Shown: piece after piece, positions 1-44,801 of the stretch
Position numbering within the stretch: the stretch's first letter is position 1
Layout: each line of letters begins with the position of its first letter
IMG/VR virus record: IMGVR_UViG_3300046387_001331
Origin: an uncultured virus (IMG/VR IMGVR_UViG_3300046387_001331)
Taxonomy: Duplodnaviria; Heunggongvirae; Uroviricota; Caudoviricetes
DNA length: 64,000 nt
Direction: 5' to 3' (one strand)
Position numbers and translations under genes: made by a program
Notes under the pieces: generated by a model
Seen by the model: the letters and a program-made list of their open reading frames with translations, nothing else
Told to the model about the DNA's origin: nothing
The model's database searches: none

Positions 1-3000
1 TCACCAAGTGCTTCACTTTCATACTCAGAGACGGTATCACAATCTGCGAGTATTTCATACTCACAAAGTGCTTCAATTTCGTATAGTGCATCATACTCAC
101 CAAGTATTTCAGTTTCTCAAAGTGCTTCACTTTCTTATAGTGTATCATACTCACCAAGTGCTTCACTTTCATACTCACAAACTGTATCACAATCTGCAAG
201 TATTTCATACTCACAAAGTGTTTCTGCTTCAAGTAGTTATTCGGTTTCTGCTAGTGAATCTTACTCAGCAAGTATATCAGTTTCTCAAAGTGCTTCACTT
301 TCTTATAGTGCTTCGTTGTCACCAAGTGCTTCACTTTCATACTCACAAACTGCATCACAATCTGCAAGTATTTCATACTCACACAGTGTTTCGGTTTCTC
401 AAAGTGCTTCACTTTCTTATAGTGCATCATACTCACAAAGTATTTCAGTTTCACAAAGTGCTTCACTTTCTTATAGTGCTTCGTTGTCACCGAGTGCTTC
501 ACTTTCGTACTCACAGAGTATTTCACAATCACAAAGTATTTCATACTCACAGAGTATTTCATACTCACAGAGTATTTCATACTCACAAAGTATTTCACAA
601 TCACAAAGTATTTCATACTCGCATAGTGCTTCGCAATCCGCAAGTAGAAGTTATGAAGCACACTGTATTTGGAAATACAGTGATGTTACGATGGATAAAA
701 TAACAGTAGATGGTAAGACCAAACCAAGATTTTTATTTAATGGAGAAACTGGTGAAGAAAATTATTCAACTCCATATGCAGTTGGATTAGGAACTACATA
801 TCTGAGTATTCCAGACAGATCACATAGAATAGCATTTAAACAAGATGGTAAATGGGTACTAGAGTTACCTGGAATTAAATTAGTCGGTGGAAACAAAGAA
901 ACCGTTGTGAGAGGTGGTAACCAGAAAGGTCATGCGGTATGGGGTGATGTAAGAATGATTGTTTCATCCAACTTTGGTACTATTTCCTATGCACCAGGTG
1001 CAGATGCAGGTGATGGTGGTGGTGCAGACAATTTAACATTTGATAACGATGCTTGTTTTGAGGCAGACCCAACACCCACACCAACTCTAAGTCCATCTGC
1101 AAGTATATCTGCATCAAACAGTTATTCAATTTCATACTCACAAAGTATTTCATATTCACAAAGTATTTCATACTCACAAACCGTATCGCAATCTGCAAGT
1201 ATTTCATATTCACAAAGTATTTCTGAATCACAAAGTATTTCACAATCTGCAAGTATTTCATACTCACAAACTATTTCTGCTTCAAACACTATTTCTGCTT
1301 CGCAAAGTATGTCATACTCAGATACAGGTTCTCCGAGTATATCAGATACGGGTAGTCCAACACTTTCTTATTCAGATACAGGATCACCAAGTATTTCATA
1401 CTCAGATAGTGCATCTAATTCTGCGAGTATTTCATACTCACAAAGTATTTCACAATCTGCGAGTATTTCATACTCTCAAACTATTTCTGCTTCTCAAAGT
1501 GCATCTGCTTCTTATTCTGCTTCAAAATCGGCAAGTATTTCATACTCACAAAGTATTTCACAATCTGCGAGTATTTCATACTCTCAAACTATTTCTGCTT
1601 CTCAAAGTGCATCTGTCTCTTATTCTAGTTCACAATCTGCAAGTATTTCGTATTCACAAACGGCATCAGGTAGTTTCTCAGCATCAGGTAGTTTCTCAGC
1701 ATCAGGTAGTTTCTCAGCATCAGGTAGTTTCTCAGCATCAGGTAGTTTCTCAGCATCTGGAAGTTTCTCAGCATCTGGAAGTATTTCAGTTTCTGGAAGT
1801 TTCTCAGCATCTGGAAGTTTCTCAGCATCTGGAAGTTTCTCAGCATCTGGAAGTATTTCAGTTTCACAAAGTGCTTCACAATCATATACAGATACAGGAT
1901 CACCGTCTAACTCGGTGAGTTTATCATACTCAGATACAGGTTCTCCAAGTAGATCAGATACGGGTAGTCCAACACTTTCTTATTCAGATACAGGATCACC
2001 AAGTTTTTCATTCTCACCAAGTGCTTCACTTTCTTATAGTGCTTCGTTCTCACCAAGTGCTTCAATTTCATATTCACAAACGACATCACAATCTGCGAGT
2101 ATTTCATACTCACAAAGTATTTCAGTTTCACAAAGTGCTTCATTATCTTATAGTACATCGTTCTCACAAAGTGCTTCACTTTCTTATAGTGCATCATACT
2201 CACAAAGTATTTCAGTTTCACAAAGTGCTTCACTTTCTTATAGTGCTTCGTTGTCACCGAGTGCTTCACTTTCTTATTCACACAGTATTTCTGTGTCAAA
2301 TAGTTACTCAGCTTCTGCTAGTGAATCTTACTCAGCAAGTATATCATACTCACCAAGTATTTCAGTTTCTCAAAGTGCTTCACTTTCTTATAGTGTATCA
2401 TACTCACCAAGTGCTTCACTTTCTTATAGTAGATCATTCTCACAAAGTGCTTCACTTTCATACTCACATAGTGTCTCGGTTTCCAATAGTTATTCAGTTT
2501 CTGCTAGTGAATCGTATTCATCCAGTGCTTCACTTTCTTATAGTGCTTCGTTCTCACCAAGTGCTTCACTTTCATATTCACAGACGGTATCACAATCTGC
2601 AAGTATTTCATACTCACAAACTATTTCTGCTTCAAACACTATTTCTGCTTCGCAAAGTATGTCATACTCAGATACAGGTTCTCCGAGTATATCAGATACG
2701 GGTAGTCCAACACTTTCTTATTCAGATACAGGATCACCAAGTATTTCATACTCAGATAGTGCATCTAATTCTGCAAGTATTTCATACTCACAAACGGTAT
2801 CACAATCTGCAAGTGCTTCATACTCACAAACTATTTCTGCTTCAAATAGTTACTCAGTTTCTGCTAGTGAATCGTATTCATCCAGTGCTTCACTTTCTTA
2901 TAGTGCTTCGTTCTCACCAAGTGCTTCACTTTCTTATAGTGCTTCGTTCTCACCAAGTGCTTCACTTTCTTATAGTGCTTCGTTCTCACCAAGTGCTTCA

Positions 3001-4470
3001 CTTTCTTACTCACAGAGTATTTCTGTGTCAAATAGTTACTCAGTTTCTGCTAGTGAATCTTACTCAGAAAGTATATCATACTCACACAGTATTTCTGCTT
3101 CAAATAGTTATTCAGTTTCTGCTAGTGAATCTTACTCACAAAGTGTATCATACTCACCAAGTATTTCAGTTTCACAAAGTGCTTCACTTTCTTACTCACA
3201 AAGTGCTTCTGCGTCAAATAGTTACTCAGTTTCTGCTAGTGAATCTTACTCAGCAAGTATATCATACTCACCAAGTATTTCAGTTTCTCAAAGTGCTTCA
3301 CTTTCATACAGTTCTTCGTTCTCACCAAGTGCTTCAATTTCATACTCACCAAGTGCTTCAATTTCGTATAGTGCATCATACTCACAAAGTATTTCAGTTT
3401 CACAAAGTGCTTCCGTTTCTTATAGTGCATCATACTCACAAAGTATTTCTGCTTCACGAAGTGCTTCATTATCTTATAGTGCTTCGTTCTCACCAAGTGC
3501 TTCACTTTCATACTCACAAACTGTATCACAATCTGCAAGTATTTCATACTCACAAAGTATTTCAGTTTCACAAAGTGCTTCACTTTCTTATAGTGCATCA
3601 TACTCACAAAGTATTTCAGTTTCTCAAAGTGCTTCACTTTCTTACAGTGCTTCGTTCTCACCAAGTGCTTCACTTTCATACTCACAAAGTGCTTCAGTTT
3701 CTGCTAGTGAATCATACTCACAAAGTATTTCGGTTTCTCAAAGTGCTTCACTTTCTTATAGTGCATCATACTCACAAAGTATTTCAGTTTCTCAAAGTGC
3801 TTCACTTTCTTACAGTGCTTCGTTCTCACCAAGTGCTTCACTTTCATACTCACAAACTGCATCACAATCTGCAAGTATTTCATACTCACACAGTGTTTCG
3901 GTTTCTCAAAGTGCTTCGATTTCGTATAGTGAATCATACTCACAGAGTGTTTCATATTCACAAAGTGCTTCAATTTCGTATAGTGCATCGTTCTCACCAA
4001 GTGCTTCACTTTCATACTCACAAACGACATCACAATCTGCAAGTATTTCATACTCACAAACTATTTCTGCTTCTCAGAGTAAATCATATACAGATACTGG
4101 AACTCCATCATTGTCAGGAACACCTTCACAATCTGATACTGATTCACCAACACCTTCTCAGTCGTATACTGCATCACATTCCGACACCGGTACAATTACA
4201 GGAACAGACTCAGGAACACCAACTGCATCAATTTCATATTCAGAATCAGCATCTAACTCATATTCACCCACCGCATCTGCTTCACAAAGTTATTCAAACA
4301 CAATATCACAATCAGCATCTTCATCACTTTCATATTCAGCAACAATTTCTGCTTCACCGAGTGCTTCTTATTCTCAAACTGCGAGTATTTCGTTTACAAG
4401 TAGTGCATCTCAATCTGCTACATCTTCACAAAGTGAATCGATTTCATATAGTGCATCGGCATCTGCATCC
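1..4470 (+). repeat. Low-complexity coding repeat region encoding (Ser-X)n
   Basis: Recurrent units such as caaagtgcttcactttcttatagt and caaagtatttcatactca; interrupted once by a globular domain at ~650-1075. Confidence 0.95.
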
Positions 4471-7400
4471 GGTGATACATCAATAATGTTCAGTGTAGAA
4501 AGTTCTCAAATCCAATTCTTTAATTTATATGTAAGATTAACAGATGATAATTTATTACAACGAAATGGATCTGATTTTGAAGTAAATTCGGGAGTTGGAT
4601 CACCATTTCCAGATCACACAAAATTAAGAATAACAACTGCGGACATGGCATTCATAAATGCTCATTCTGATAATATAAAGCACATTGAAATTCATACAAT
4701 ACCTGAAAAATCATGTGATCTTAAAACTTGTTTGACTTTGTCTGAAGAGCACGTTTACATTTATCCGTATATTCAAGAAAAATTTGAAAGTGGGTTGATA
4801 GACGGACTTTGTATTGCATCTCCGATGTCTGGACTATACAACGAATTTGGTTTAGATGCGGACAACTTTAATGAATTTATTGACGATGGTGCATTTAATA
4901 TCAATAACTTAGTCAAGAAAACTGATGATGATGTATTTGCATTAGATGACTTGGTAACAAACGATAAAGTTGCAAAGAAATTAACAGTATTATTTGAATC
5001 AGTTAAACAAGAACTTTATGGTAAAGCAAGCAATAATTCAGGATTAAGTGTAAATACTCCTTATTCAAAAACAAAAGCATCATTAGAAAGAATTAAATCA
5101 CGTGCAAGTCGTGCGTTTGATGATTCTTCTATTTCTAATATTTTTGCTGGTCAAGGTGGTGCTTTCTTTAAAGATTCGGTAAAAGATGTATTTAGTAGAA
5201 TAAATAGCAGTACAATCAGTGCGGGTTCATTCATGGATGCTTTTCGTGTTAAATTTAAGAAAAGAAAAACCAAAGAACTTCGTCAAAAACTTACATCTAC
5301 TTCACGTAAAGTCTTACTTGATTTTGCGGAAGATTTTGCAACATTTAATAGTGGTCCTTGCTTTAGTTGTGAGTTACCACCTACACCTTCACCATCTTAT
5401 AGTAAATCAATATCAATAAGTAAAACTCCTGCACCTTCACCGAGTATCACAGAAACTTACACAAAAACTGATTTCTGTGTATTTGATCATACGGAATCAG
5501 ATGTAAACGGAATTTATTACCACTTTAAATGGGGAACACGATACAACGGAAAGCATCGTTATCAAAATGGTAATTACTATATGTTCTGGAGTAATGCTAA
5601 TAAATGGGTAATAAGTAATTTACCATTTACACCAAAAGACGCATCTGCTTCAATTATTTTAGCAACATCAAATGTGGGTGAGATTTCTGATCATCCTTGG
5701 GATGTAGATTGGGAAGCAAATTCTGATTCGTCTGGATGCACCGTAACACTTGATTGTAGAACTCCGTCCAAGTCAATTTCATATTCAAAATCTGCTTCTT
5801 ATAGTAAGTCAGAGAGTATTTTTGTACCTGGTGGTCCTGGTGGTGATAAGCCTCCTGTACCTTCATTTTCTGCAAGTTATTCAGCATCTTATTCTGAGTC
5901 TGATAGTCCAACTCCAACTCCAACACCTAACGAACCTGAAGGAATTTATTTAACATTCAATCCAGCAACAGAAGATGTTTCTCTTCCAATAATGGAAATC
6001 GGAGAACTCGGAGTTACTGTAGATTGGGGAGACGGATCACCAGTTTCTTATACAACAGCTGATCAAGGAGTTATTACAAACACAAGAATCAATTCAGGTG
6101 CCGAGATTACTGTAATAATTCGTGGGGATGTTATTTCATATGGTGATTATGATTCACAAAAACCAAGTGCATATAAAACCGCAAGTAACGAAAATATCAA
6201 GTCTGTGAAAGTAATTGGTATGAACACAATTACAGATGCTTCTTATATGTTCTGGAATATGGAAGAAGCAACCTCTTTTGATTTACAATTCTTTGATACT
6301 ATTAACATCAAAACAATGGCACATATGTTTAATAGTTGTAGAGCACTCACAGAACTTAACTTTAATTATGCTCGTAACAATACACACTATGTTACAACTA
6401 TGACAAGTATGTTTGCAAATTGTGTAAGTTTAGAAACTTTATATGTAAGTAACTTCCGCACCGAAAATGTAAGAAACATGACAAAAATGTTCTCTTACAA
6501 TAGATCACTTGATTCTGTAAATATAACTCCTTGGTGTGTAAGGTACATTGATTCCGAACCATACGAATTTGCATTACAAGCACCATTCTCTGAAAGACCA
6601 CAATGGGGTGCTGAATGTATGGGTAAACCAACACCAACACCAACTAAAACACGAACCACATCATTTACTATTACTCCATCCAAATCAATGAGTTTCAGTA
6701 AATCTGCGTCTGCTTCATCAACACTGCTCGAAAAACTTATAAGATTAGCAGGACGAGGAATGCACAATGGTCTTGTAATTATCGGATACAATAAAAATAT
6801 TCTTGAAAACGATGGAACAACACCTGTAACACCTTCAAACGATAATGATACTAAAGAAGAAATGTATTGCGTATTTCAATGTACAGGAGAAGATCAAGAG
6901 TGGATAGTTCCACCAAATGAAGCAGGAACTTCATTGAATCCAAACGGAGTTACACCACTCAAAGAAAACATTAAGATTTGGGCATGGGGTGCTGGAGGTT
7001 CTGCCACTGGATATAATACTACTGAAGGTGGTGCGGGTGGATTTACTTATGCAGAAGTACCTGTATATCCTGGTGAAAAGTTGATAGTTGGAGTTGGTCA
7101 GTCATATAAACCTGGAAACAGAAGACTTGCCGGGTATAGTCCGGGAGGAACTGCCGGAAACGGAGCAGCTTCATGGGGTAATCCCGCAGGTTCCGGTGGA
7201 GGAATGAGTGGAGTTTGGAAACGATCAATTTCAGTTGCTAATTCATTGGTAATAGCCGGTGGTGGTGGAGGTTCATCTGGAGGATTTACTGCACACGGCT
7301 CCGGAGGCGGAGGTGGTGGAGGTCTTTATGGTGGAGACGGAAACCGTTTTGGTGGTGATGGTCGTGGTGGTGACGGAGGTCGTCAATCTAGAAGTGGATC

Positions 7401-9582
7401 AAGAATGCAGTTCCGTGGTTCACAGGGTGGTACAAATCGTCATAGTGCCGGTGGTGGTGGAGGTGCCGGATATTGGGGTGGTGGACCTGGTCACGGTTGG
7501 ACTGCGGAAGATACATCAGGTGGTGGTGGTTCTGGATTTGTTGTTAGTGACGCAATTGAGTGGAAAATGGTTCAAGGTGGTCGTGGTAATAAAAATCGTG
7601 GAGAAATAGGACCATACAAAAAACCATCAATGATTCCATACAGAAGAGATTTTTGGAGAACTAATTTACCAACATGGAAAAGTTCAAGTGGTGTTAACGA
7701 TGATCTTGATTTTACATATCTTGAGCATCATGTAAATGTACCAGATGAATTGTGTGTACCTTATGACGAATTTAGAGATTTACCATCAACATGGCCAATT
7801 GGTATTCCTGTGTTGACACTTGATAAAAATCCAACAAATAATCAAAAACCAACATGGTCATGGGATGCAATACCATCTGCAAATGATTATGAACTTATAC
7901 TAGATGGTGTAATTGTAGAACACACACATAGTAGTACATCATATCAACCATCAAGTGATCTTTCCGAAGGAAAACATACACTTCAAGTTCGTGCAAGAAT
8001 TGGAACAAATTATAGTGTACCTGGATATAAAACTGTTACCGTTGATTTGACTGCACCAAAAGCACCAAATCCAAAAACTAAAACTCCTGTAATGGGGTAT
8101 GCAGATGTAACATGGACATGGCCATCATATTTTGACCACAATGGAGATTATAAGGTTTATGTAGATACAGAGGGAACTACTTCATCACAACCAGGAACTG
8201 GAAATGGTGCTCCGTCTGATGGTGATTATATAGATTTACCAAGTGGTCAACGAAACTTTACTGTAAATGGATTAGATACGGGAGTATACAAAATTTATGT
8301 AAAAGCATCAGATGCGGCCGGAAATTATAGTTCTGCCGGAACGCATAGTGTAAATGTAATTCCAACACCAACTCCATCTTATAGTAAAAGTATATCTTAT
8401 AGTAAATCTAAGTCGTACTCACAAAGTAAATCACAAAGTTACACTCCATCTTGGATGTGTAGAGCATATAGATATACTGCAACTGGTGCAAACCAAAAAT
8501 TTATTGTACCTGATGATATTGAGGTTTTATACTTCCAACTTTGGGGTGCAGGTGGTGAAGATGGTGGAACAAAACATTCTGCTGGATCCGGTGGATACAC
8601 AATCTGTGCGATGAATGTAACTCCTGGAGATGAAATTATAGTAGGAGTAGGTGAAACCGGTAAAAACGGAACACCTGGATATAGTATAGGAACATCCAGT
8701 GGTGGTATTGGATCAGGAAGTGCCGGTGCAGGTGGTGGTTTAAGTGCTGTTTACTATAAAAGTATTTCTGAAGATAATTTAATCGCAATCGCCGGTGGTG
8801 GTGGAGGTGGTGCGGGAAGCAATAACTATCGTGCCGGTGGTGGTGCTGGTGGTGGTAAATCAGGTCGCCACGGTGAACGTTATAGAAATGATAATAAAAT
8901 TGCTCCTGGTACACAATCAAGTGGAAATGCAAAATATGTAGGTCAAGATGGTGCGGACGATTCCAACGGAAACGGAGGAGGTGGAGGTGCTGGATACTTT
9001 GGTGGTTTCGGTGGAACAACTCATAGTGGAGCAGACGCAAGTGGTGCTGGAGGTTCAGGATATGTTAATCGTGATCTTACAATTGATAGAGTAAATGGAA
9101 TTAATTCAGAAACATACTTTGGAGCAGACGGGGCAAGTGGATACAAATTAGCAAAACATCCTTACATGGGTATCAGCAAAGAACTTGGTAAAAAACGTAG
9201 TGCTTCGGAAAAATTAGGAAATGGAAACCAAGACGGATTTGTAATGATATATGCATTCTGTCCTGGATACGATGTACATACACCTACACCAACTCCGTCA
9301 AAAAGTATATCTTATTCAAAAAGTATATCTTATAGTAAATCTATTAGTATATCAAAAACTCCAACTCCAAGTCAATCTAGGACAATATCTTATTCAAAAT
9401 CATGGAGTGAATCGAAAAGTCATTCATATTCACCTTCACCATTTAATTGTCCAGAACCGAATGTAATTTGTGACAATGTAATATTCCATATGCAAAGTAA
9501 TGACGATGATGAAGTAAATACTAGCAGATTTAAAGACTTTGGAATCAAGAAGCACATAATTATTGAAAGAACAGATACCTAA
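1..9582 (+). CDS. Giant Ser-rich repeat virion fibre/adhesin-like protein (5'-partial): alternating-Ser stalk, DUF285/BspA-like repeats, two Gly-rich domains, two Ig-like domains, N-terminal part of a LamG-like domain
   Basis: Frame +1 is open from base 1 (tca cca agt gct...), so the called start at 316 is internal. (S-x)n repeats to ~4470; MF...DTxNxxxMxxMF repeats ~6230-6620; WGAGG Gly-rich domains at ~6870-7560 and ~8460-9260; PTWSW...HTLQVRA and [11 protein letters not shown]g-like motifs ~7800-8360. Confidence 0.8.
1663..1860 (+). repeat. 18-bp tandem repeat (ASGSFS)n
   Basis: gcatcaggtagtttctca then gcatctggaagtttctca units in tandem. Confidence 0.9.
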
Positions 9583-9595
9583 TAAGGAAATTTAA

Positions 9596-12500
9596 ATGGC
9601 AAAGCATTCAACAAATAAAACATTATTTAGTAAAAAAACCATTGAGTTTGAAAACGGAAATGATTATGTAACAATAAGTGAGTCCGAAGATAATGTTATT
9701 TCTGGATTAAATCTAGGAAAAGAGTATACCGTTGAATCATGGATAAGTACCACAGAAATTCCCGAAGATCCAACTTTTACATATGCATCCGATGTTGCAA
9801 ATGCTTTAAAGGAAAATTCAACTTTAACTTTATCAGGAACCGTTAATGTTAATGATTTGTATGAATCGGATTTATTGTATGCAGTTAAATTTGACGGAAC
9901 TGAAATAACATTAAAAAACAAAACATCTGATAAATTTCCTGTAGATGCGAGAATTCTTATCATTGAAATGCAAGCATTATCATCAGGTACAAAATCTACT
10001 GTTGGTAACTATGAGTTTGCTGAAGTTGATTCTTATATTAGTGACGATGAAATCAAACTAAAAAATGCGTTAACCAAAACATTTGATTTTACAAATAGAT
10101 TATATGTTGTTTATCAAAAAAGATACGAAAAAATTGTAATAGATCGGGATGCACGAATTATTTGTAATTCATGGGCAACAAATTTCAACGAAATAAATGG
10201 TCTTATATTGTTATGTGCAGACGAAATTATAGTTCAAGGAAAAATTGATGGTAACTATCGTGGATTTCGTGGAGGAAATTCAGGACCACACGGAAATTAT
10301 CACGGAGGTCGTGGTGAGGGTGTCGTTCATGGATTATACAACAACCGAGCTATGGGAACAAACTACACCGGTGGTGGAGGTGGTGGATATAAACGGTCTG
10401 GTGGTGGTGATGTTGGAACTGGAGGTGGATCGGGAGGAAATGCTTCTAAAGGATATAATTCAAATAGTTTTGAAGGATATTATGGTCGTGGTGGACAACG
10501 CAATAATTATCCCGATGGTAAACTCTTTTTAGGAGGTGGTGGAGGTCAAGGTGCTGGAGACGGAGCATGGCCTGCTGAAACTTGTTCAAGTCGTGGTGGA
10601 AACGGAGGACGAGGTGGAGGAATAATCATTCTTGATGCAGAAAACACTCATATTGCAAAATTTGGATCAATAGTTGCAAAAGGACAAATGGGATTCGGCC
10701 GTGACAGAAGGTGTTCAGGTGAACCCGGAGACGGAGGTGCTGGAGCAGGTGGATCAATTTTATTTTTAGGTAATGCGATAAATCAAAATACCGGAACACC
10801 AATCAATGATTCTAATGTATGTGCCAAAGGTGGAGTACATAGGGGTGCAGGGCATTATTATGGACCAGCAGGTGGTTTGGGAATAATCCAAACAGGAGGA
10901 TATCATTTAGGTTGGATGCAAGGATGGATGGGGCATAAATTTCATAATTGCTCAGTAATTGCATCTTTTGCTAGACCATTTGGAAAAACTGGTGATGTTG
11001 ATGACTACAACACAGAAAAAAATCGTCATGCATTTTTATTAACTGCAATTCCGTTTGAAGATGGATATAAATTAGCCGCAGGACAAAGTCATAGAATGAT
11101 GCCTGTTAGTGAAAAATTAGATTTTGATAGATTTTATCATTTTGTAATTTCAAGAAATTCTGGATCATTAGAAGCAATTTACATAGATGGAAAACGAAAA
11201 GGAGTTAGAACATGGCCAAGTAATCATGTTTATGAAAATAGCAACATTATGCTTGGAGCAAATTCGGATAATGATTTTGAAAATCCTGCTCCGTTTACAG
11301 GATTCATTCAAGATTTCCGAGTAGCACAAAACAATATGTATGATTGTACAAGTTATACATTAGGAGATTCCTCAAATGTTCCAACTGAAAGTTGTACAGA
11401 TCCAACTCCGTCACCAAGTAAATCACCAAGTTATAGTAAATCTGCATCTGCTTCTTTTGAATTTCCAGATGGATGTCCAACGAGAGTTGTTCCTTATTGG
11501 GGTGGAACATCGGGAGGAGGAACTCGTACTGGACCAAGTAATTTAGGAAATGCGTTTGATGGTAAAGATGCAACTAGAACAGGATGGGTTGGTATAAGTC
11601 ATTCGGGAAGTTGGAAACAAGATAGATTTTATTTCAGTGATTCAAATAAGCAAACTCCTGGTACTTTAAGATTTTATATGCAAGGAGGGGTGAATAGTGG
11701 TTACGGAAATCGTGCGGATATGTACGTTCGTTATCATGAGTATGGAGGTGATTGGGTTTATCTTCGTAATGTAACAAATGCTTATATGCCACGTGATCAG
11801 CATTTTAAATATGAAGTAAGAGTAGATAGTGTTGCGAGAGTTGATGTTTATTGGAAAGATAGAGGAAAAGGTTCAATTAATTATTTTTATTGGTATGTTG
11901 ATTTCGAGCAAGATTGCTATCCAATTTGTGATAATAGTATATTTCATATTCAAGCAAAAGGAAATGAACCATTAAAAGACCGAAGCACTAATGAAGTTCC
12001 TATTGAAGATGGTTTTGAAGGATATTTACCTTCATTACCAAAGGTCCCGGATGGCATTGACAATCCAAATATTTTAATGGATGCTAGATTTTCAAATGTC
12101 ACAAATTTAATAAACAACGCAACTTTAGAAGGATCATATTCAATTCAAGGAAGCACTCCGTGTCAACAATCTGTGAGATTTGCAAATTCGGGAGGATATG
12201 CATATTTTGATAATTGGGATTCTAAACCACAAACACTTTCATTTGAAATAGATTTTAAAATAAATTCTCATTCTAATACTGCAACTGGTGGAGCAGACGC
12301 AGGAAGTCAATATATTTTGCATATGCAAAATGAAGAAGAAGAAAGTCATACAAATGGTCTTAGTTTAAGTTACGGAGAATCAAATAAAAGTTTATCAATG
12401 GCAGTTACAAGTGAACCACCAAGTCAACCTACCGCAGTAACAGATGCAGATGCTTTGGTTTTGGGTGAACGAGTTCATGTAGTTGTAACAATTTCATCTG

Positions 12501-15418
12501 ACACTATTAAAATTTATGTAAACGGAGTTGAATCTGCATCTGAAACAAAAGATGATGGAATTGTTTATCATCCCACAAATAAACTTACATTGGGTCGTGC
12601 GAATTTACTTGGAAGTGATTTTGATCGTTATATGAACGGTGATATATATAATTTCCGATTATGGGATGACGTAGTGTTAAATTCCTCTCAGGTTAATGAA
12701 TTATATGAACTTAGAAATGCCAAGATAGAAACTTGTGATCAAGCAGGAATTGACTTAGGTCAATCAAGTTTCGCAATATCAGAAGATAAGTATATTCTCG
12801 GTAATTTAAGTACAACTGCCCGTAAATTAAAAGTAGATGAAGATTTTACAATTGAATTTCGTGTATCTATAAAAGACTTTGAAATAGCACCAAGTGTTTC
12901 TGATTTGGGAACAGGAAGCAATGCATACGATCCCGTCGGTAATATAGTATTTGCCGGTGCAATGGGAAGTCAGGGAATTGTCGGTGTTGGTATTACAAAA
13001 GAAAAATATTTTTATACAGGATTTGATGGAACGCAAACCAATGTCTTGTTGACATCGAGTACTCCAATTCCATCGTCTTCTAATATTTTTAAATTAAGAA
13101 GTATAAAAGAACGAAGCACAACATCGTCTGGAGCAACTACAAACTATCTAAATACAAGTTCAGATTTATATAAGAATTTAGTAGATGCGTTTAACTTTTG
13201 GAATGATACTGTTGCTTATCCTGATTCGTGGATTGAGTACAAAGGAAGTGCTCAACAAATTGAAATGGATATTTATGTTGAAGATTGGGGTGAAATAAAC
13301 GATGATTTACCTTCAAACGCACAATCTGCTATGCCTGAGAATACTGTTGCCCGTGCGGCTTTCATGAGTGCATCTGGACCAAAAAGTGGTGGTGAATTTT
13401 CGTTTGGAAGTATTTTTCCAGAAGATGGATTTATACGAATTAATAGAAAATTTATTGATGAGGGTCATTTTGATGATATACATGATGGTCATAGTGATAT
13501 GTATTACACAATTCGTCATGAATTAGCACACATACTTGGAATCAATAGCACATTTTTTAATAAATCTGTAATAGCAGATGCACCGATAGGATCATATGTA
13601 GAAGGTGGAAAAACCAAATATTATTACACAGGTAAAAATGGACTTGATGCATATAAAAACGCAATTACAGATGATGGTGTAAGAAGTGGTATTGTTGGTA
13701 TTCCTATTGAAGATGACGGAGGTTCTTCATCTGCGGGTGGTCACTGGGAAGAAGGTGACTCGGCCGATAGATTTATTGATGGTAAATTGCATCCTGGTTT
13801 AGATACTGAGACATTGACTCCGATACATGACGATGAAGATGTATTGAGTGCCATTACTTTAAATGTATTAAAAGATCTTGGTTATCAGGTTGATTTGTCA
13901 AAAGCAGAACCATACAAAATTGGTAGTGGTTCATTGCCTCTTCAATCATCATCATCTAAATTTATGATCGATGAAACACAAAGATCATTAAACACAACTT
14001 ATTCAGTTGCATTGAATTACAGAAGTAATGTTTTAACTTTATTTATCAATGGATATGCAGTAAAACAAAGTGTGGTAATTTTTAATGACGATGCTCACAT
14101 GGATGGTATTGTAGTTGGTGCTAATGATGCATTAGATTATTTTTCATCTAATATAAACATTCAAGATGTAAGAATTGTACAAGAAAGTTTATATGACCGT
14201 GAGTATTATAAACCAAGAAACTTTTTGACTGATGCCTGCGAAAATGTAAAAACACCAACACCAACACCAACATTAACTTATGTAGGAAGAACAATTACAA
14301 TTGCCGAAGTAAAAGTAGATGATGATTCAGAAATGAATAATGTATTTGCAAGAGTTTTTGTAAATGACAGTGGACCTAATCCTGATAGTTCCGATGATTA
14401 TTGGGGTTATTCTGTTAATGGTGGACCGGTTTTAAGAGTTTATGAAGGATTTACTGTTGATTTTACTTATTTAATTGACGGAACACATACATTCAAAGCA
14501 TATTATTTTGTAGCAGATGGAACACAAACTATTGTAACAGATGCATCTGAATTTACAATCAAGTCACCGGAATTAAACGAAAAATGTAATCGTTACCAAG
14601 TAGAACGAACAAAAAATCTATTAAGATCAATTGATATTATTGGGAAGTGTAGTATCGTAGTAACACCAAATTATTTTAAGTATGAAAGCACAGGTTTATC
14701 AGTTCAAACTGCTAATATCGTGGTTAATGATACAGATGGAAATCAATATGTTAATTCAGATTATACATTTAGAAATATCATTGAAGTAACATCAAATACT
14801 GCTTCAAAAAATACAGTGTTGATTATTGATTCTGGAGAAGCAAATGCTGGAAGTCTAAGTAATCTAAGTAAGACAATTAAAATTCAAGCATTTGGTGAAC
14901 CAACTACTGTAAATGGATGGATTGGAGATAATATTGACATAATTACAACTGATATTTCAAACAAAAATTATTTGACTTCAAACAATTCAAGAACATTTGT
15001 AAATCCTGGTGATTGTGAACACGCAAGTCATTATACTGTTGATTTAAGTCATACTGATGTCACACTCAATTCAACACCTCGTTCTGCTTTGTCTTATTTA
15101 AATATGTTGAGCAGTGATATGATTTCAGATGAATTAGAAATTCACACAATTGATAAATCAAATTACAAATTAGTTCCATTGTATTCGTCAAAAGACATAA
15201 TAAGTTCAACATTACTTTCTCAGTCAAAACCAGAAGTTGGATTGCTTCCAAATATTGTATTGGAACTTGACAATGTGGGTGGTGATCCTGCGAATATAAA
15301 TGAAACAAATGATCAACCAAACAGGATATATATAACAACTCTTAACAAACATAACAAAAAATCAAGTTTAATTGTAAACTCTGCAAAAATCATAGTCAAT
15401 AACAACGAAACAAATTAA
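9596..15418 (+). CDS. Giant multidomain virion protein: LamG-like jellyrolls, Gly-rich domain, discoidin-like domain, leishmanolysin(M8)-like zinc peptidase
   Basis: RBS AAGGA at 9584; LamG motifs (YTVESWI, FYHFVISRN, IYIDG, FTGFIQDFRV; VHVVVT, IYVNG, MNGDIYNFRLW); NAFDG discoidin motif; HELAHILG at 13517 with downstream IPIEDDGG...GHWEE...ETLTP. Confidence 0.8.
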   Translation: MAKHSTNKTLFSKKTIEFENGNDYVTISESEDNVISGLNLGKEYTVESWISTTEIPEDPTFTYASDVANALKENSTLTLSGTVNVNDLYESDLLYAVKFDGTEITLKNKTSDKFPVDARILIIEMQALSSGTKSTVGNYEFAEVDSYISDDEIKLKNALTKTFDFTNRLYVVYQKRYEKIVIDRDARIICNSWATNFNEINGLILLCADEIIVQGKIDGNYRGFRGGNSGPHGNYHGGRGEGVVHGLYNNRAMGTNYTGGGGGGYKRSGGGDVGTGGGSGGNASKGYNSNSFEGYYGRGGQRNNYPDGKLFLGGGGGQGAGDGAWPAETCSSRGGNGGRGGGIIILDAENTHIAKFGSIVAKGQMGFGRDRRCSGEPGDGGAGAGGSILFLGNAINQNTGTPINDSNVCAKGGVHRGAGHYYGPAGGLGIIQTGGYHLGWMQGWMGHKFHNCSVIASFARPFGKTGDVDDYNTEKNRHAFLLTAIPFEDGYKLAAGQSHRMMPVSEKLDFDRFYHFVISRNSGSLEAIYIDGKRKGVRTWPSNHVYENSNIMLGANSDNDFENPAPFTGFIQDFRVAQNNMYDCTSYTLGDSSNVPTESCTDPTPSPSKSPSYSKSASASFEFPDGCPTRVVPYWGGTSGGGTRTGPSNLGNAFDGKDATRTGWVGISHSGSWKQDRFYFSDSNKQTPGTLRFYMQGGVNSGYGNRADMYVRYHEYGGDWVYLRNVTNAYMPRDQHFKYEVRVDSVARVDVYWKDRGKGSINYFYWYVDFEQDCYPICDNSIFHIQAKGNEPLKDRSTNEVPIEDGFEGYLPSLPKVPDGIDNPNILMDARFSNVTNLINNATLEGSYSIQGSTPCQQSVRFANSGGYAYFDNWDSKPQTLSFEIDFKINSHSNTATGGADAGSQYILHMQNEEEESHTNGLSLSYGESNKSLSMAVTSEPPSQPTAVTDADALVLGERVHVVVTISSDTIKIYVNGVESASETKDDGIVYHPTNKLTLGRANLLGSDFDRYMNGDIYNFRLWDDVVLNSSQVNELYELRNAKIETCDQAGIDLGQSSFAISEDKYILGNLSTTARKLKVDEDFTIEFRVSIKDFEIAPSVSDLGTGSNAYDPVGNIVFAGAMGSQGIVGVGITKEKYFYTGFDGTQTNVLLTSSTPIPSSSNIFKLRSIKERSTTSSGATTNYLNTSSDLYKNLVDAFNFWNDTVAYPDSWIEYKGSAQQIEMDIYVEDWGEINDDLPSNAQSAMPENTVARAAFMSASGPKSGGEFSFGSIFPEDGFIRINRKFIDEGHFDDIHDGHSDMYYTIRHELAHILGINSTFFNKSVIADAPIGSYVEGGKTKYYYTGKNGLDAYKNAITDDGVRSGIVGIPIEDDGGSSSAGGHWEEGDSADRFIDGKLHPGLDTETLTPIHDDEDVLSAITLNVLKDLGYQVDLSKAEPYKIGSGSLPLQSSSSKFMIDETQRSLNTTYSVALNYRSNVLTLFINGYAVKQSVVIFNDDAHMDGIVVGANDALDYFSSNINIQDVRIVQESLYDREYYKPRNFLTDACENVKTPTPTPTLTYVGRTITIAEVKVDDDSEMNNVFARVFVNDSGPNPDSSDDYWGYSVNGGPVLRVYEGFTVDFTYLIDGTHTFKAYYFVADGTQTIVTDASEFTIKSPELNEKCNRYQVERTKNLLRSIDIIGKCSIVVTPNYFKYESTGLSVQTANIVVNDTDGNQYVNSDYTFRNIIEVTSNTASKNTVLIIDSGEANAGSLSNLSKTIKIQAFGEPTTVNGWIGDNIDIITTDISNKNYLTSNNSRTFVNPGDCEHASHYTVDLSHTDVTLNSTPRSALSYLNMLSSDMISDELEIHTIDKSNYKLVPLYSSKDIISSTLLSQSKPEVGLLPNIVLELDNVGGDPANINETNDQPNRIYITTLNKHNKKSSLIVNSAKIIVNNNETN

Positions 15419-15438: not shown

Positions 15439-17445
15439 ATGAAACTTTTTGAGCATAACCAAGGTGGTGGAAACAACACAGAATGTGGATCGTGGTATTA
15501 CGATAAAAAAATCTGTGAGTTTAACAATAAAATTTATATCAGACAACAAGGTCACACAAAAACTGATCTTAAACCTATATTCAATGATTATTTGGGTATG
15601 AGTGCATATGGGTCAGCAATGAGTCTTCACAACAAGATAGGCATGGAGGTAACTCAACACGCACCATCGTGGTATAAAGGTAAGAGTAGCGATCATGTTT
15701 GGTATCACGATACAAATTATAGAATGTATCATTTAAATAGTCTTGATGGTCAAGTTGAGGCCTGTGCGGCTATTGATGGAAAGGGGTTTAAGTTGGAAGA
15801 ATTTTATGAGTCTGATGAAGGTCACATTTTTTACAATGAACAAACACGAAATGACAATGAAATTTTAATTAAAAAAGATCCTAAGACTATGAAAAATGTT
15901 GTGGTGAATGTTCATAATAATCAGTTATTAAGAAACATGAGAGTAATACATGAAACTGATGATTATTTGTTTGCGATTCACGGTGGAAATACATATACAC
16001 ATTATGCAGGTGGTTTTATTAGAATATTGAAATCTGATTGTACATGGAATCGTAGAGGATGGCACGGCCGTCATACATTTGGATATCAACCAATTTATAA
16101 GAATGATGATTATATTTTGTCGTTTGTTTGGGAAGCAAATTATAGTTCTGCTCAACCAGGATTCAGTTTACATAAACATCATTGGGATGATTCTCATACA
16201 AACAATTCTAGTCGTTATTTAAGAAAAGATGGAATAACCGCTGCATATACTAATTTACAATGGTTATCAGCAGATTCAGACGGAAATCCAAATCCATCAA
16301 CTTCGTTATCATCTCGTCCTTCTATTTACTATCCAATGGAAGATGCTCATCGTATGTCAGATGGTAGTGCTTTTGTTCCTAAAGATGGTTTTTATTCTCA
16401 CGCAGGTGCGGCTATGGTAGCAGACGAAACATTGCGTAATACACACAATGTAGGAAGAATGTATGTAGCATATTTTGAAGATAGTACCGTTGATGAATCT
16501 GAACCACTTGCAATTTTACGAATTAATGTACCGATTGGTGATGATGTACCAGATGCACCTGAATATGATGTCAGAAAATGTGAATTAGATCATAGTGGTG
16601 CAGGTGATCCCGATTTGGATGTTCCAACGTGGGTGAATGTACACAAAGAAGGAGGTCGAAATGGATCGTCAGCGTGGATTTATCGTGAACAAAATCTTCA
16701 TTATTTTCGTGCGGAAAATAGTGGTGGTGGTACAAGTTCATATTTGTTGTTAACATTTGAAGACTCAAGTGGATTTGATCATCATAACCAAACATATCAT
16801 CAATTTGGAGATAGATTTTATGTTTATACAATTGAAGACGATTCTGTAAGTGCAGACATTACAGAAACTGCTTCACTTAAGTTAAAACTTGTGCAAACTG
16901 AAAATCTTGATAATCCAATTTTAGGAAAGTTTTTTCCAGGAGGTCATGCTGGAGGTTTTGAAAAGTTTGTGTTACTCAATTATACATCCGCAGAAAAAAA
17001 TCCAGTTTATGTATGGGATTCTACAACTGAAAATTTTGTAACTGAACCATCATCAGACGGAATTGTTGGTTCAATAACTTCAATAGGTGAAGATTCAACA
17101 GGAAGAATATTCAGTGTAAGATATCCGTCTTCAAACACACAGGAAATGAAACAAGAAATTCACATTGACTCAATTGATTTGCCACATGATGTAAAAATTG
17201 TACCTGAACAAGCATCTTACAATTATACGTCTGGAACAATTGATACTTTTGTAAATGTAAGTGTTTATGATGCTGAAGGAAATCGTCTTAATAAAAGTGT
17301 GGCATTGACAATCGTTGGAAGTGGTGTTAATTTCACAAGTGGAGGAGCATCAAAAACTGTATCAACATCAACAGGTCAAGATACTAAAGTAGATATACAA
17401 ATTACATCCGCATCACGAATTCAAATGACTGCGACAATATCATAA
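15439..17445 (+). CDS. Putative virion/receptor-binding protein, paralog 1 of 3
   Basis: 668 aa; shares QxHxKxxLxPxF, YDV/I..C, DSxGR and a C-terminal beta-rich domain with the next two ORFs. Confidence 0.65.
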   Translation: MKLFEHNQGGGNNTECGSWYYDKKICEFNNKIYIRQQGHTKTDLKPIFNDYLGMSAYGSAMSLHNKIGMEVTQHAPSWYKGKSSDHVWYHDTNYRMYHLNSLDGQVEACAAIDGKGFKLEEFYESDEGHIFYNEQTRNDNEILIKKDPKTMKNVVVNVHNNQLLRNMRVIHETDDYLFAIHGGNTYTHYAGGFIRILKSDCTWNRRGWHGRHTFGYQPIYKNDDYILSFVWEANYSSAQPGFSLHKHHWDDSHTNNSSRYLRKDGITAAYTNLQWLSADSDGNPNPSTSLSSRPSIYYPMEDAHRMSDGSAFVPKDGFYSHAGAAMVADETLRNTHNVGRMYVAYFEDSTVDESEPLAILRINVPIGDDVPDAPEYDVRKCELDHSGAGDPDLDVPTWVNVHKEGGRNGSSAWIYREQNLHYFRAENSGGGTSSYLLLTFEDSSGFDHHNQTYHQFGDRFYVYTIEDDSVSADITETASLKLKLVQTENLDNPILGKFFPGGHAGGFEKFVLLNYTSAEKNPVYVWDSTTENFVTEPSSDGIVGSITSIGEDSTGRIFSVRYPSSNTQEMKQEIHIDSIDLPHDVKIVPEQASYNYTSGTIDTFVNVSVYDAEGNRLNKSVALTIVGSGVNFTSGGASKTVSTSTGQDTKVDIQITSASRIQMTATIS

Positions 17446-17457
17446 GGAAAAATAAAA

Positions 17458-19551
17458 ATGAAAGTATGGACAAACCAACCAGGATCAAGCGACTATAATT
17501 GCGATGATGGTACTCACATCGTTGCGGAAGATAGTCAATATATTTTTATTAACGGACAGGCACACGATAAAACTACATTAAAACCAATATTCGGTGTTCG
17601 TTTTGGTGTGTCGAACGAAAAATTTCCAATGCTATTGAGCAACAGTGTGTTTATACCAAAAGATTTACATAGTACGGGTGGATTGGAAAAAGGAACAACT
17701 CATGGTCTTTATTATTATGGTCTTCATTCACAAAATGCTACAACTCATAATAATGGTCAAACACAAATGCTAGGAATCAAGGGAACAGGAGGAGCAAGTG
17801 AAAGTGATTATGCTTCATGTGGTATGTATGAATCAAAACTTGATTCGGACGAAATATTATCATTTGAAACGAGTTGGCATGATTATCATTCCAGTTCTTG
17901 GAACGCAACAACTACTTTCAGAAGAAGAAGCATGAATTATAATGTGTCTAATTTTGTTTATGGTCCAAGAAATTCATCAGATGGACACTATCAGTATGTG
18001 TATCCTTATCATGAAGATGAAAAATTTGTATATGGTTTTATAGGAAATAATGATGTGGGTGCTCATCACACTGGACACGTCGCTATAGATAAAACTGCCG
18101 ACACTACTTTTCTCTGGAGGGGTGGATATTCATATTACGAACGGGTTAATACGATTTTGTATAAAGATGATACAACAATTATATTGGCATCTAGCAACTT
18201 TAATGATTCACGTTTTGCGATTAAGAAGTTTAATTGGAGTGATGGTTTTAGTCATAGTAACAATGAGAATGTTTATTATCGTGAAGATTATGCTAATCAG
18301 GATGGATATAGAAGTTTTTTGAAATGGTGGGTAAAAGCAGATAATGATGAACTTGAACCAACAACATCGGGTCAATGGCATTTTGATAATAATGCTGATA
18401 ATGAAATTGCAGACAATAAAATTGTAGGTAATCCAAATGATTTAAATATTTCTGTTGCTCCTGCGATTGTTCATACCGCAGATGAAGATATTATTCATCC
18501 AACGATTCGTAGATGTTATGCTCCATTTTTTGCATTTGATTCAAGCCAGGATGATTATTATGAATTACGCATGACTCGTTTAAATATTCCAATTAAAGGA
18601 CACGATGCATTTGATTCTACTGATGCTCCACGTTACGATATATCATTGTGTGAAATTAATTGGGATGAAGCAAACACAGGATGGAATTCATTTAAATACG
18701 ATGATTTTCGTGGTGTTGCAGGTCAAACAATGTATCGTGGTTCTGCATCACGTGGTCATGCTTGGTTTAATTGTGCGTTTTTTGAAGATACAGATTCAAA
18801 TGGTCATTTCCGACATTTTATTATGGTTAGTAGTGATTCTTATGATGGATTAACACATTATAGCGGACACAGTGGAGCAACCCGTGCATTAGTGTTTGAA
18901 ATAGGACCCTTACAGAATGATGATAAATTGGGTAACGGAAAACCTGATCCTGCTGAAACTGATTATGCTTCAGATAATTTACATGAAACAGATAGTACAT
19001 CCTTGAAACTTGTTCAAGTTTTGGATTTAAGTGATAATTGTGGTTATCAAATTTTTCGTCCTGAATATGATCCAAAGAAATTTATTGCTTTTCAAATGCG
19101 TGAAGATACACATCCTATTTACACTTGGAATTCTACTGCAAAGGCATTTGAAACAAATTCAAACTTTGTAGGAAGCAATGTCACACACATGGGAACAGAT
19201 TCAACAGGAAGATTTTGGACAATTCAAAATCCTGCAAAGGGTGAATTAGAATTGCATTGTCATACAATTGATATTCCTGCGGTAGTAAAAATTACACCTG
19301 TTTCTTCTTCTTTGGACTATCAAGGTTCTCCTATCACTACCAAAGTAAACGTAGGAGCATTTAATCACGAAGGAGACAGAATTGGTGTAGATTTGAAGTT
19401 ACAAATTAGAGGAGAAAATGCTTCATTCGATGGATCATCCACCGTCCTTGAAAAAACAATTACTGTTACAGATTCTGCTGATCTAGAAGTAGATGTTATT
19501 GTCTCTGGAGCAACAAATTTAGATATAACTGCAACACATTTAACAAGTTAA
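17458..19551 (+). CDS. Putative virion/receptor-binding protein, paralog 2 of 3
   Basis: 697 aa; RBS AAGGA; QAHDKTTLKPIF, YDISLC, DSTGRFW, DIPAVV. Confidence 0.65.
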   Translation: MKVWTNQPGSSDYNCDDGTHIVAEDSQYIFINGQAHDKTTLKPIFGVRFGVSNEKFPMLLSNSVFIPKDLHSTGGLEKGTTHGLYYYGLHSQNATTHNNGQTQMLGIKGTGGASESDYASCGMYESKLDSDEILSFETSWHDYHSSSWNATTTFRRRSMNYNVSNFVYGPRNSSDGHYQYVYPYHEDEKFVYGFIGNNDVGAHHTGHVAIDKTADTTFLWRGGYSYYERVNTILYKDDTTIILASSNFNDSRFAIKKFNWSDGFSHSNNENVYYREDYANQDGYRSFLKWWVKADNDELEPTTSGQWHFDNNADNEIADNKIVGNPNDLNISVAPAIVHTADEDIIHPTIRRCYAPFFAFDSSQDDYYELRMTRLNIPIKGHDAFDSTDAPRYDISLCEINWDEANTGWNSFKYDDFRGVAGQTMYRGSASRGHAWFNCAFFEDTDSNGHFRHFIMVSSDSYDGLTHYSGHSGATRALVFEIGPLQNDDKLGNGKPDPAETDYASDNLHETDSTSLKLVQVLDLSDNCGYQIFRPEYDPKKFIAFQMREDTHPIYTWNSTAKAFETNSNFVGSNVTHMGTDSTGRFWTIQNPAKGELELHCHTIDIPAVVKITPVSSSLDYQGSPITTKVNVGAFNHEGDRIGVDLKLQIRGENASFDGSSTVLEKTITVTDSADLEVDVIVSGATNLDITATHLTS

Positions 19552-19555
19552 TATT

Positions 19556-21544
19556 ATGAAAATATACGAAACACAAACAAGTGGAAGAATAAGTCAAAGA
19601 CACACTGGAATTATGCTCAGAGAGGATCCTGAGTATATTTGGATCTATGACCAAGCACATACTAAAGATACGTTGAGTCCTGTTTTTGCAAAACGTTGTC
19701 TTTTATATTCTAATAATTTGCCTATTGTCATGGATAATTGGCAAGGAACTCCGTTTCATTGGGATGCAGATTATGCTCATCGCAATGTAGGTGGAGCATT
19801 TTGGTATGGTCCACATGGATGCAATTTAGTTACGGGTAATGGTCAATTGAATATGCATGGAATTAATCCAAGTGTGTGTGGTCAATCGAGTTATGATCCT
19901 GATTATTATTATACTGCTCCTTTTACTAATAATGATGTCAGTAAATCTCTAATTAAATATAAAATTCACGCACCAAGTGGTGAAGTTGTGAATTGGGATA
20001 ATAGTAATTCTCACGGTTCATTAATTTACTTTTTGCACGAAACTGAAGAATATTATTTTGGTTTGAATTGTTATCATCATGGTAGTGCTAGATTTGTTCG
20101 CATGGAAAAAGGTAATAATTTAGCTATTAATAACAAAGGTCGATATTATGATAGTGGAGATTTTTTAGGACCACAAATATTATATAAAACTGATAAAGCA
20201 GTTATATTTATGAATTGTTGGCACAATTCGTCTACTGCAATGGCCTTCGTTGTGGGTAAAAATTATTGGACAGATACTGGTACAAACACGACATCTCACT
20301 ATCAGAAAACTTCAAATGATTTATCTGTGACATATACAGATTGGACAAAACCATTTCTTCGTAAAAGTTTATTTAAATTGAATCAAAGTGGATATGAACC
20401 TGATACGTTGGGTAGCAATAGTTATCTTGGTATGGGCAGATCAGACACGAAATTATTAAGTGATCGTGAAGAAGAAACACAATATGACGCAAAATTAAAT
20501 TTTCATATGCATTCTCTTGCGGCTACTGTACATGATCATGATTCTGGTGAAACTGGATTAATTAAAGATCATAGTATGCTTAGATGTTACACAGCATATT
20601 GTGATGAAGATGGTGCATTTCAAATACTTAGATTTAATATGTCTATAGATGATGCAGTAGTTGCACCAACTTATGATGTCAGAAGATGTAAATTAAGCAA
20701 TCCAAGTAATTTAGAAGCACCTACTTTAGATACAATTGAAGCACACGGACAAGCATACATGGGTGACGATAATCGTGCTCAACAAGGAGTACAATTGGCA
20801 TATTTTACCGACAAAAAAGACGGAGCATACGAACATTATTTGTTGATGTCATTTGCAAATATTGTAGGTTCTAATATTATGCGTGATACTGGTCCTAACT
20901 ACAATTACAATAAAATGTATGTTTACAAAATAACAAATAAAGCAGAATTTTTCTCAAATGGAGGTTCTATGGATGAAGTTGCTTCTCTTGATTTATCGTT
21001 ACATCAGGTGATAGTTGAACAAGATATGGCATTTGGATTATTGCGACCAAACTTTGATGCAAAAACATTTGTTTATTGCACACGCACAGATAATCATCCT
21101 GTGTATATTTGGAATAGTGAAGACCAAGTTTTTGATAAGAAAACATCACTTACTGCACAAGCAATTAATTTTGCGGCGGACTCTGATGGAAGAATATATT
21201 CATTGAATTATCATAAAGATGACGATTTTTCAATTGATATGTTTACTCTTGATATACCTAGTAAAGTATTATTAGAAATGGATGAATATGAATACGAGTA
21301 TTCCGGGTCTGCTTTAGATAAAGAGGTACGAGTCAAAGCAATAAATTGGAAAAGTGAATTAATAGAAGCAAAAGTTAATTTAAAAGTAGTAGGAAGTGGG
21401 GTGTCTCTCGTAGATGCTGGAAATGGTAATGCTGAAGTAAATACATTAGAAGTTACAACCGACACGTCAGATTGGGTCACAATACCTATTAAGATAAATT
21501 CTGGATCAGCAGTTAAAATTAACGCAAGTATATCACCTAACTAA
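19556..21544 (+). CDS. Putative virion/receptor-binding protein, paralog 3 of 3
   Basis: 662 aa; QAHTKDTLSPVF, YDVRRC, DSDGRIY, DIPSKV. Confidence 0.65.
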   Translation: MKIYETQTSGRISQRHTGIMLREDPEYIWIYDQAHTKDTLSPVFAKRCLLYSNNLPIVMDNWQGTPFHWDADYAHRNVGGAFWYGPHGCNLVTGNGQLNMHGINPSVCGQSSYDPDYYYTAPFTNNDVSKSLIKYKIHAPSGEVVNWDNSNSHGSLIYFLHETEEYYFGLNCYHHGSARFVRMEKGNNLAINNKGRYYDSGDFLGPQILYKTDKAVIFMNCWHNSSTAMAFVVGKNYWTDTGTNTTSHYQKTSNDLSVTYTDWTKPFLRKSLFKLNQSGYEPDTLGSNSYLGMGRSDTKLLSDREEETQYDAKLNFHMHSLAATVHDHDSGETGLIKDHSMLRCYTAYCDEDGAFQILRFNMSIDDAVVAPTYDVRRCKLSNPSNLEAPTLDTIEAHGQAYMGDDNRAQQGVQLAYFTDKKDGAYEHYLLMSFANIVGSNIMRDTGPNYNYNKMYVYKITNKAEFFSNGGSMDEVASLDLSLHQVIVEQDMAFGLLRPNFDAKTFVYCTRTDNHPVYIWNSEDQVFDKKTSLTAQAINFAADSDGRIYSLNYHKDDDFSIDMFTLDIPSKVLLEMDEYEYEYSGSALDKEVRVKAINWKSELIEAKVNLKVVGSGVSLVDAGNGNAEVNTLEVTTDTSDWVTIPIKINSGSAVKINASISPN

Positions 21545-44771: not shown

Positions 44772-44801
44772 TTTTAAAAACTAGAAAAGGAAAAAAATAA
44801 A

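Follow-up and report, generated by a model that had tools for sequence, protein, structure and literature searches.

Fused and split forms of one protein, the so-called 'Rosetta-stone' pairs, are known to come with fragment complementation, as in the split RNA polymerase subunits and in mitochondrial cox2a/cox2b, and gene fissions are usually tolerated at inter-domain linkers. Here we describe a fission in the IMG/VR record IMGVR_UViG_3300046387_001331 from an uncultured virus, in which a LamG-type module is divided between two adjacent giant genes, referred to below as gene 1 and gene 2; the window is the whole stretch of 64,000 nucleotides analysed, and positions refer to it. As in the Rosetta-stone cases, fused and split forms occur in related genomes, the genes are adjacent and collinear, and both pieces are conserved. 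Unlike those cases, the break interrupts a single compact, conserved module, in giant phage-type surface proteins, and not a linker between domains, and the upstream chain retains only about 36 residues.

Three other systems are comparable in part. In donor-strand complementation, known from chaperone-usher and type V pili, as is proposed here, a short terminal peptide completes the β-sandwich of the next chain and chains are joined head to tail. The present case differs in that the fold is a jelly-roll of the LamG type rather than immunoglobulin (Ig)-like, the joint would be single and heterotypic rather than part of a polymer, no chaperone or usher is seen, the donor would be a C-terminal tail with an N-terminal acceptor, and the part on the other chain may be an extension accessory to the fold and not one of its core strands. 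The module itself resembles Laminin_G_3 (PF13385; concanavalin A-like lectin/glucanase superfamily), since gene-2 residues 504-576 align with profile positions 72-140 and the model of a relative matches lectin folds, but it carries an AgmC_N-like insert of about 425 residues, and it has a Cys-started extension of about 55 residues that lies beyond the Pfam model. Split inteins, too, have halves of an otherwise single protein encoded by adjacent genes. We rejected a split intein here: Pfam finds no intein family in either gene, the gap is 13 nucleotides (nt), and nothing is left to splice out because the break aligns residue for residue with fused relatives.

A LamG-type module divided between two genes

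Gene 1 (1..9582; this and all other features lie on the plus strand unless stated) is in frame 1, is truncated at its 5' end by the window edge, encodes at least 3193 amino acids and has its TAA stop codon at 9580-9582. Its product includes Ser-rich repeats, DUF285, Ig-like domains and two Gly-rich domains, and closes with a Ser/Thr/Pro low-complexity linker ending in SPSP (approximately 9280..9441, from the translation), followed by a C-terminal tail of 46 residues ending in ERTDT (9442..9579). Gene 2 (9596..15418), in frame 2, encodes 1940 amino acids beginning MAKHSTNKTLFSKKTIEFENGNDYVTI...YTVESWIS. The junction between them (9580..9598) reads ...GAT ACC TAA TAA GGA AAT TTA A ATG: two consecutive TAA codons at 9580-9585, a Shine-Dalgarno (SD)-like AAGGAA at 9584-9589, six bases ahead of the gene-2 start, a frame-2 TAA at 9593-9595, and the ATG at 9596-9598, giving a gap of 13 nt and a change from frame 1 to frame 2. 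Since TAAGGA-type stop-plus-SD motifs also precede the starts at 15439, 17458, 33005 and 44802, this junction looks like the genuine junctions of the same genome. Cysteine codons lie at 9448 and 9469 in the gene-1 tail and at 11345 and 11393 in gene 2. An earlier note on this DNA had described two genes in different frames parted by TAATAA, a ribosome-binding-site-like motif and ATG; the junction letters agree, and the coordinates and peptides it quoted, the four Cys codons among them, were all correct on re-checking.

In more distant genomes the same module is encoded by one gene. One metagenome scan and one viral-contig scan yielded ten loci, L001 to L010, comprising a close relative (L001, 95%), a locus left out because its match is confined to gene-2 residues 621-774, outside the module (L002), and eight distant loci (L003-L010, 33-36% identity over the module). 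In all eight distant loci, the tail-equivalent and the gene-2-like start form one uninterrupted open reading frame (ORF), with fused ORFs of 876 to 3827 residues, and the database protein P0169 (2035 amino acids) is likewise continuous across the boundary. The 46 residues upstream of the module match in these loci align with the gene-1 tail, and the break falls exactly at the gene boundary of the window. For example, L009 runs from ...IIQSGD straight into AKHTTSTKLFG..., and the window has ...IIIERTDT, the stops, a methionine and AKHSTNKTLFS. Next to the break, the split lineage has two residues more than the fused forms in the tail and seven more in the loop after VTISESE (alignment A6).

A profile made from only the 38-residue tail-equivalents of the eight fused relatives was run against every stop-to-stop peptide in the six frames of the window (995 peptides; 67,049 amino acids). 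Its top match was the gene-1 tail (residues 3154-3171, expectation value (E) 7.8e-4) and its second match an internal LamG copy in gene 2 (E 0.15). Judged by these comparisons, the resemblance of the tail to the extension of the fused relatives is more than chance. The collinear fused loci, together with the profile's choice of the gene-1 tail, indicate that the ancestral state was a single chain and that the lineage of the window underwent fission. The earlier note had named fused homologues as a check on its reading and had likened the end of gene 1 to the start of the intact copy within gene 2; such homologues do exist, in the eight loci and P0169, and the runner-up match of the profile is that internal copy.

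The fused forms differ in their surroundings. L006 (2111-13564), L007 and L008 are single ORFs of 3694-3827 residues with the module at about residue 2631, where it directly follows another LamG unit; their similarity to gene 1 further upstream is weak, so domain order has been extensively shuffled among lineages. A search for longer fused forms among proteins of 3396-5000 amino acids gave weak Gly-rich matches and no close fused relative. Neither DNA nor protein of the phage records matched the module, and a first viral-contig scan with a single-protein query gave no match.

The divided module can be followed through gene 2 in three parts. Residues 1-55 (9596..9760) hold the rest of the N-terminal extension and the first Laminin_G_3 strands (FENGNDYVTI...YTVESWIS), corresponding to Pfam positions 1-34 of the relatives (alignment A6). 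A Gly-rich domain of about 425 residues (approximately 9761..11035) is inserted in the jelly-roll and occurs in all relatives in the same alignment. It resembles AgmC_N (NCBIfam NF047640; gene-2 residues 132-427, E 1.3e-16), with 60.5 bits against a family cutoff of 275, which makes it a domain-level similarity and not membership of that family. The C-terminal half of the jelly-roll follows (11036..11398), with the conserved cysteines at 11345 and 11393, and is recognised by Pfam, by AlphaFold2 (AF2) and, in the model of a relative, by Foldseek. Its Pfam match (E 2.2e-6) is marginal, at 28.4 bits against a cutoff of 27.6, and came from a 140-residue piece (window 11000-11420) scanned alone; a 608-residue piece of gene 2 scanned whole against Pfam gave no family, and short pieces at the junction gave no match. 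The N-terminal strands match in relatives only and below the cutoff (16-17.5 bits), with Laminin_G_3 positions 1-34 falling on residues 64-97 of 100-residue pieces from L003 and L006 whose first 46 residues are the tail-equivalent.

The Cys-started extension of about 55 residues accompanies the module in every relative, and the gene boundary of the window falls inside it. In LamG_3-type domains, a stretch of this kind may contribute strands to the sandwich. No NCBIfam model covers this extension. Sequence searches of the PDB gave a single weak match for the C-terminal half (4qvs, E 3.7e-4), and those for an unsplit LamG unit taken from P0169 were not meaningful (E 0.28 and 0.39). Gene 2 also contains an unsplit LamG-type module (11915..12715) that starts with CYPICDNSIFHIQAK at residue 774 and is recognised by Pfam as Laminin_G_3 at residues 909-1033 (E 1.9e-26, whole gene-2 protein scanned).

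Age of the split and conservation of the gene-1 tail

The fission is real and not an assembly artefact. The two independent DNA assemblies that span the junction, from other seawater or marine metagenome runs (X5 and X12), both leave it unchanged: the X5 contig has no differences over 9000-9796, and the X12 contig has 24 substitutions over 9000-10200, none of them between 9526 and 9723. In L001 the junction is the same, with all three stops kept and one A>G change in the SD-like motif. The earlier note had judged that the split looks evolved rather than erroneous and had proposed examining 9575-9600 for an indel that would fuse the ORFs; no such indel is present in these contigs, and the window shares the split with L001 and with the 54-67% lineage described below. 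The X12 contig has a 1-nt deletion and a 1-nt insertion at 9402/9404 in the Ser-rich linker, which put one codon out of frame before the frame is restored. No contig from the RNA libraries spans the junction: X15 includes stretches of gene 1 and gene 2, and X16 is confined to part of gene 1.

The split is also old. The four gene-2 homologues examined (P0003-P0006), ranging from 96% to 54% identity, all begin MAKHS, including P0006 at 54%. Orthologues of gene 1 surfaced only in a library-wide phmmer search, in which the last 376 residues, compared with 1.84 billion proteins, found P0014 at 63% identity; when residues 3090-3193 of gene 1 were compared with proteins 1756-5588 amino acids long, nothing matched at E <= 10. 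P0014 and its cluster mates P0164 (1660 amino acids) and P0165 have the same tail ending, with the last two residues identical. P0164 is collinear with gene 1 at 67% identity over 1697 columns and ends at the same residue. It is very probably the neighbour of P0006, since both lie on one JGI contig of 16,295 bases. By these comparisons, the split predates the separation of two lineages whose identity is now 54-67%.

Across this distance the tail has kept its form. Between the window and P0014/P0164, 28 of its 46 residues (61%) are identical, with no indel and the same stop, and the substitutions relative to the P0164 lineage are mostly swaps among I/V/L/F/M, between D and E, and between K and R. 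The alignment of gene 1 with P0164 has 68% identity over 1700 aligned columns, and the tail lies at the 32nd percentile among its 46-residue windows. All four cysteines are kept in both split lineages, and an alignment that includes the fused forms (alignment A2) shows little or no variation in an H-x-Q-S motif and in the boundary Cys. At shorter range, the X12 strain differs in the tail by N12K, D21E, S28N and one synonymous change (from the listed substitutions and codon phase), and L001 differs within the 46 tail codons by three amino-acid and two synonymous changes, a third synonymous difference (CCA/CCG) lying just upstream. That the tail evolves at the pace of the folded parts of gene 1 argues that it still works, and its preserved length, stop position and ancestral motif at 54-67% identity argue that it is not an unconstrained relic. 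Both halves of the module are evidently under constraint. Docking in trans onto gene 2 would be the simplest explanation of the conservation of the tail.

Possible roles for the retained tail

The scenario that we favour begins with an ancestral single-chain module made of the Cys-started extension and the Laminin_G_3 jelly-roll with its Gly-rich insert. Gene fission then cut this module in the lineage to which this uncultured, marine, phage-like genome belongs. The break falls at the turn that separates the second short hydrophobic stretch of the extension from the third, and takes the form of a compact stop-SD-start cassette like those at several other gene junctions in the window. The C-terminal tail of gene 1 retains the roughly 36 residues that follow the boundary Cys, and gene 2 has the remainder. 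Translation would yield two separate giant proteins, and the narrow gap of 13 nt makes coupled translation probable. By docking in trans onto the N-terminal module of gene 2, the gene-1 tail would restore the ancestral unit and link the two chains terminus to terminus; the product would be a surface fibre or adhesin with 5133 residues or more. On balance, we think it probable that the chains are translated separately, likely in a coupled manner, and that the tail docks onto the gene-2 module and so joins them. The four conserved cysteines may later lock the joint; the idea of inter-chain disulfides is speculative and draws on the conservation of these residues. A stronger version, which we regard as unlikely, makes the tail and the truncated module a natural high-affinity split connector, possibly with two inter-chain disulfides, that bolts gene 2, as an exchangeable distal module, onto a constant giant stalk formed by gene 1. 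Gene 2 occurs as variants of 1940 and 1638 amino acids, with and without a leishmanolysin-like domain. If this version were true, the locus would provide a plug-and-socket for host-range modules and a ready-made pair of protein-ligation tags.

Several other accounts of the junction are possible in principle. It is hardly credible that a sequencing or assembly indel falsely splits one ORF, since the same junction is found in the window, in L001 and in the contigs of X5 and X12, no indel occurs in 9410-9900 across the bridging contigs, and the gene calls of the JGI, ENA and Logan assemblies agree on the split. Recoding, by a frameshift combined with read-through or by ribosomal bypass, could yield one polypeptide from frames just 13 nt apart, and fusion would restore the domain logic. 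Three stops in two frames make fusion by simple recoding implausible, though: two consecutive TAA codons close frame 1 and a third TAA closes frame 2 right before the ATG, all three are kept in L001, and no matching take-off and landing codons are seen in the 19-nt junction. We found no open path from frame 1 to frame 2, and consider recoding very improbable. The tail could also be a decaying, functionless relic of a neutral fission that has yet to be lost. The three amino-acid against two synonymous changes between the window and L001 show no sign of purifying selection at short distance, as such a relic would predict, but a stretch of 138 nt free of constraint should have drifted far more, or been truncated, at the divergence where the tail retains 61% identity, no indel and the same stop in the 54-67% lineage. 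We regard a relic as quite improbable.

The most serious rival, doubtful but worth keeping in view, accepts the fission as real and dispenses with complementation: the jelly-roll of gene 2 would be self-sufficient, and the tail would be kept for another reason, such as an interaction of its own, the folding or stability of the gene-1 C-terminus, or overlap with translational-coupling signals. Several observations weigh on this side. The Pfam Laminin_G_3 model starts at the 'FDG' strand, 17 residues into gene 2, so the canonical core lies wholly within gene 2 and the share of gene 1 is a conserved N-terminal extension outside it. The canonical pentraxin and LNS folds presumably lack such an extension, and together with the position of the Pfam core this suggests that the core may be self-sufficient. 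What the earlier note had called a split LamG-like domain is therefore a module divided between genes, as the fused relatives indicate, whose Pfam core is itself uncut. Modelled by AF2, the fused L009 module (alignment of 13 rows; mean predicted local distance difference test (pLDDT) 65.8) shows pLDDT 28-49 and no strands over residues 1-52, a stretch that takes in the entire tail-equivalent. The tail-equivalent is thus left unplaced even when fused, and the model does not support its belonging to the sandwich. The model of gene-2 residues 1-608 alone (mean pLDDT 66.1) builds the C-terminal half of the jelly-roll without the tail at pLDDT of about 82-89 (residues 481-550). The favoured scenario has two further limits: the known split lineages number only two, and the argument from the SD-like motif is modest because such a motif stands at canonical spacing in just 5 of the 28 starts checked.

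On the other side, the tail retains the ancestral pattern of the extension and evolves at the rate of folded parts, and an unrelated new role would not be expected to keep the ancestral motif, length and stop position. Both AF2 models have low overall confidence and were built from alignments of 13-14 rows, and their results are compatible with complementation without showing it, and leave room for a core that folds alone. The earlier note had taken complete folding of the N-terminal domain of gene 2 without the peptide as evidence against its proposal; in the model of gene 2 alone, the C-terminal half is well modelled and residues 1-13 fall below pLDDT 50. As to the fold, the L009 model, not the window protein, had 226 matches in the PDB by Foldseek at E <= 0.001; lectin-like jelly-rolls headed them, including pentraxin 3flp, neurexin LNS 2r16 (TMt 0.47), laminin LG and trans-sialidase. 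A concanavalin A-like jelly-roll is thus predicted for the homologous L009 module, in a model whose mean pLDDT is only 65.8.

Genomic context and significance

Apart from the joint, the two giant proteins have a modular architecture. The first 1500 residues or so of gene 1 (1-4500) consist of near-periodic Ser-rich repeats with S-x-S-x-S-Y-S units and SGSFSA runs, interrupted by one small non-repeat island near residue 230-345, and SYSKS and PTPTPT motifs serve as inter-domain linkers throughout gene 1 and gene 2. The Gly-rich domain of gene 1 (WGAGG...GGGGGAGY...GGSG) is present in two copies, at about 6850-7600 (residues ~2290-2530) and 8452-9280 (~2818-3090). A query of the second copy with the tail matched 284 proteins at E <= 0.001 in the 1.84-billion-protein library, which places the domain in a widespread unnamed family. 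In gene 2, residues 1303-1439 (about 13500-13915) resemble leishmanolysin (Peptidase_M8, E 8.9e-6). The 1638-residue variants P0003 and P0005 lack about 300 residues at this stretch, so close relatives vary in the presence of the leishmanolysin-like module. Directly after gene 2 come three tandem paralogous ORFs of 668, 697 and 662 amino acids (15439-21544), two of which match phrog_20698 (function unknown) at their C-termini.

The source is probably, though not certainly, a large uncultured marine phage. The window contains many small ORFs without a family and several PHROG families, including an ATP-dependent DNA ligase and a UvdE-type endonuclease, and no tRNA, capsid or terminase genes were found in it. 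The ORF at 24269-24886 matches the PHROG 'head maturation protease' (7e-52), but it is ClpP-like and 60-64% identical to phage-record genes that bear a Clp protease annotation, and the match is not a reliable virion hallmark. It is this, with the lack of capsid and terminase genes in the window, that leaves the phage assignment probable rather than certain. The only large minus-strand ORF (49944-51314, minus strand) has homologues, at about 38% identity, that within the phage collection come from T4-like cyanophages only: all 92 records are Synechococcus, Prochlorococcus or Cyanophage entries. Among the genes of L010, itself from IMG/VR, are DnaB-like and UvsX-like ones. Related contigs are as long as 204-270 kb, and at least 14 public runs (seawater, marine and one freshwater) contain half or more of the sampled words. 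At 42642-46085, a PSCyt2/PSD1 (DUF1549/DUF1553) protein is followed by a DUF1501 protein (E 8e-114), a pair which we take to be typical of Planctomycetes-type bacteria and unexpected in a phage-like contig. If the phage assignment is right, gene 1 and gene 2 would encode a virion surface fibre or adhesin.

Overall, this locus presents a conserved fission that cuts through a structural module. Events of this type, in which the fragments are retained, are already known; distinctive here are the cut within a compact module of giant surface proteins, the survival of both fused and split forms, and the conservation of an upstream fragment of about 36 residues. Full-text literature searching, judged from the result entries alone, did not find this split or these proteins described. 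Because the cut lies inside a conserved unit, both states survive and the small fragment is conserved, the locus offers a natural test case for the evolution of fragment complementation. Should the tail turn out to be dispensable, the case would show where the boundary of this LamG-type module truly lies. A real joint would exemplify how a phage can assemble a surface fibre exceeding 5000 residues out of two separately translated chains, and it would offer protein engineering a compact peptide-domain pair.

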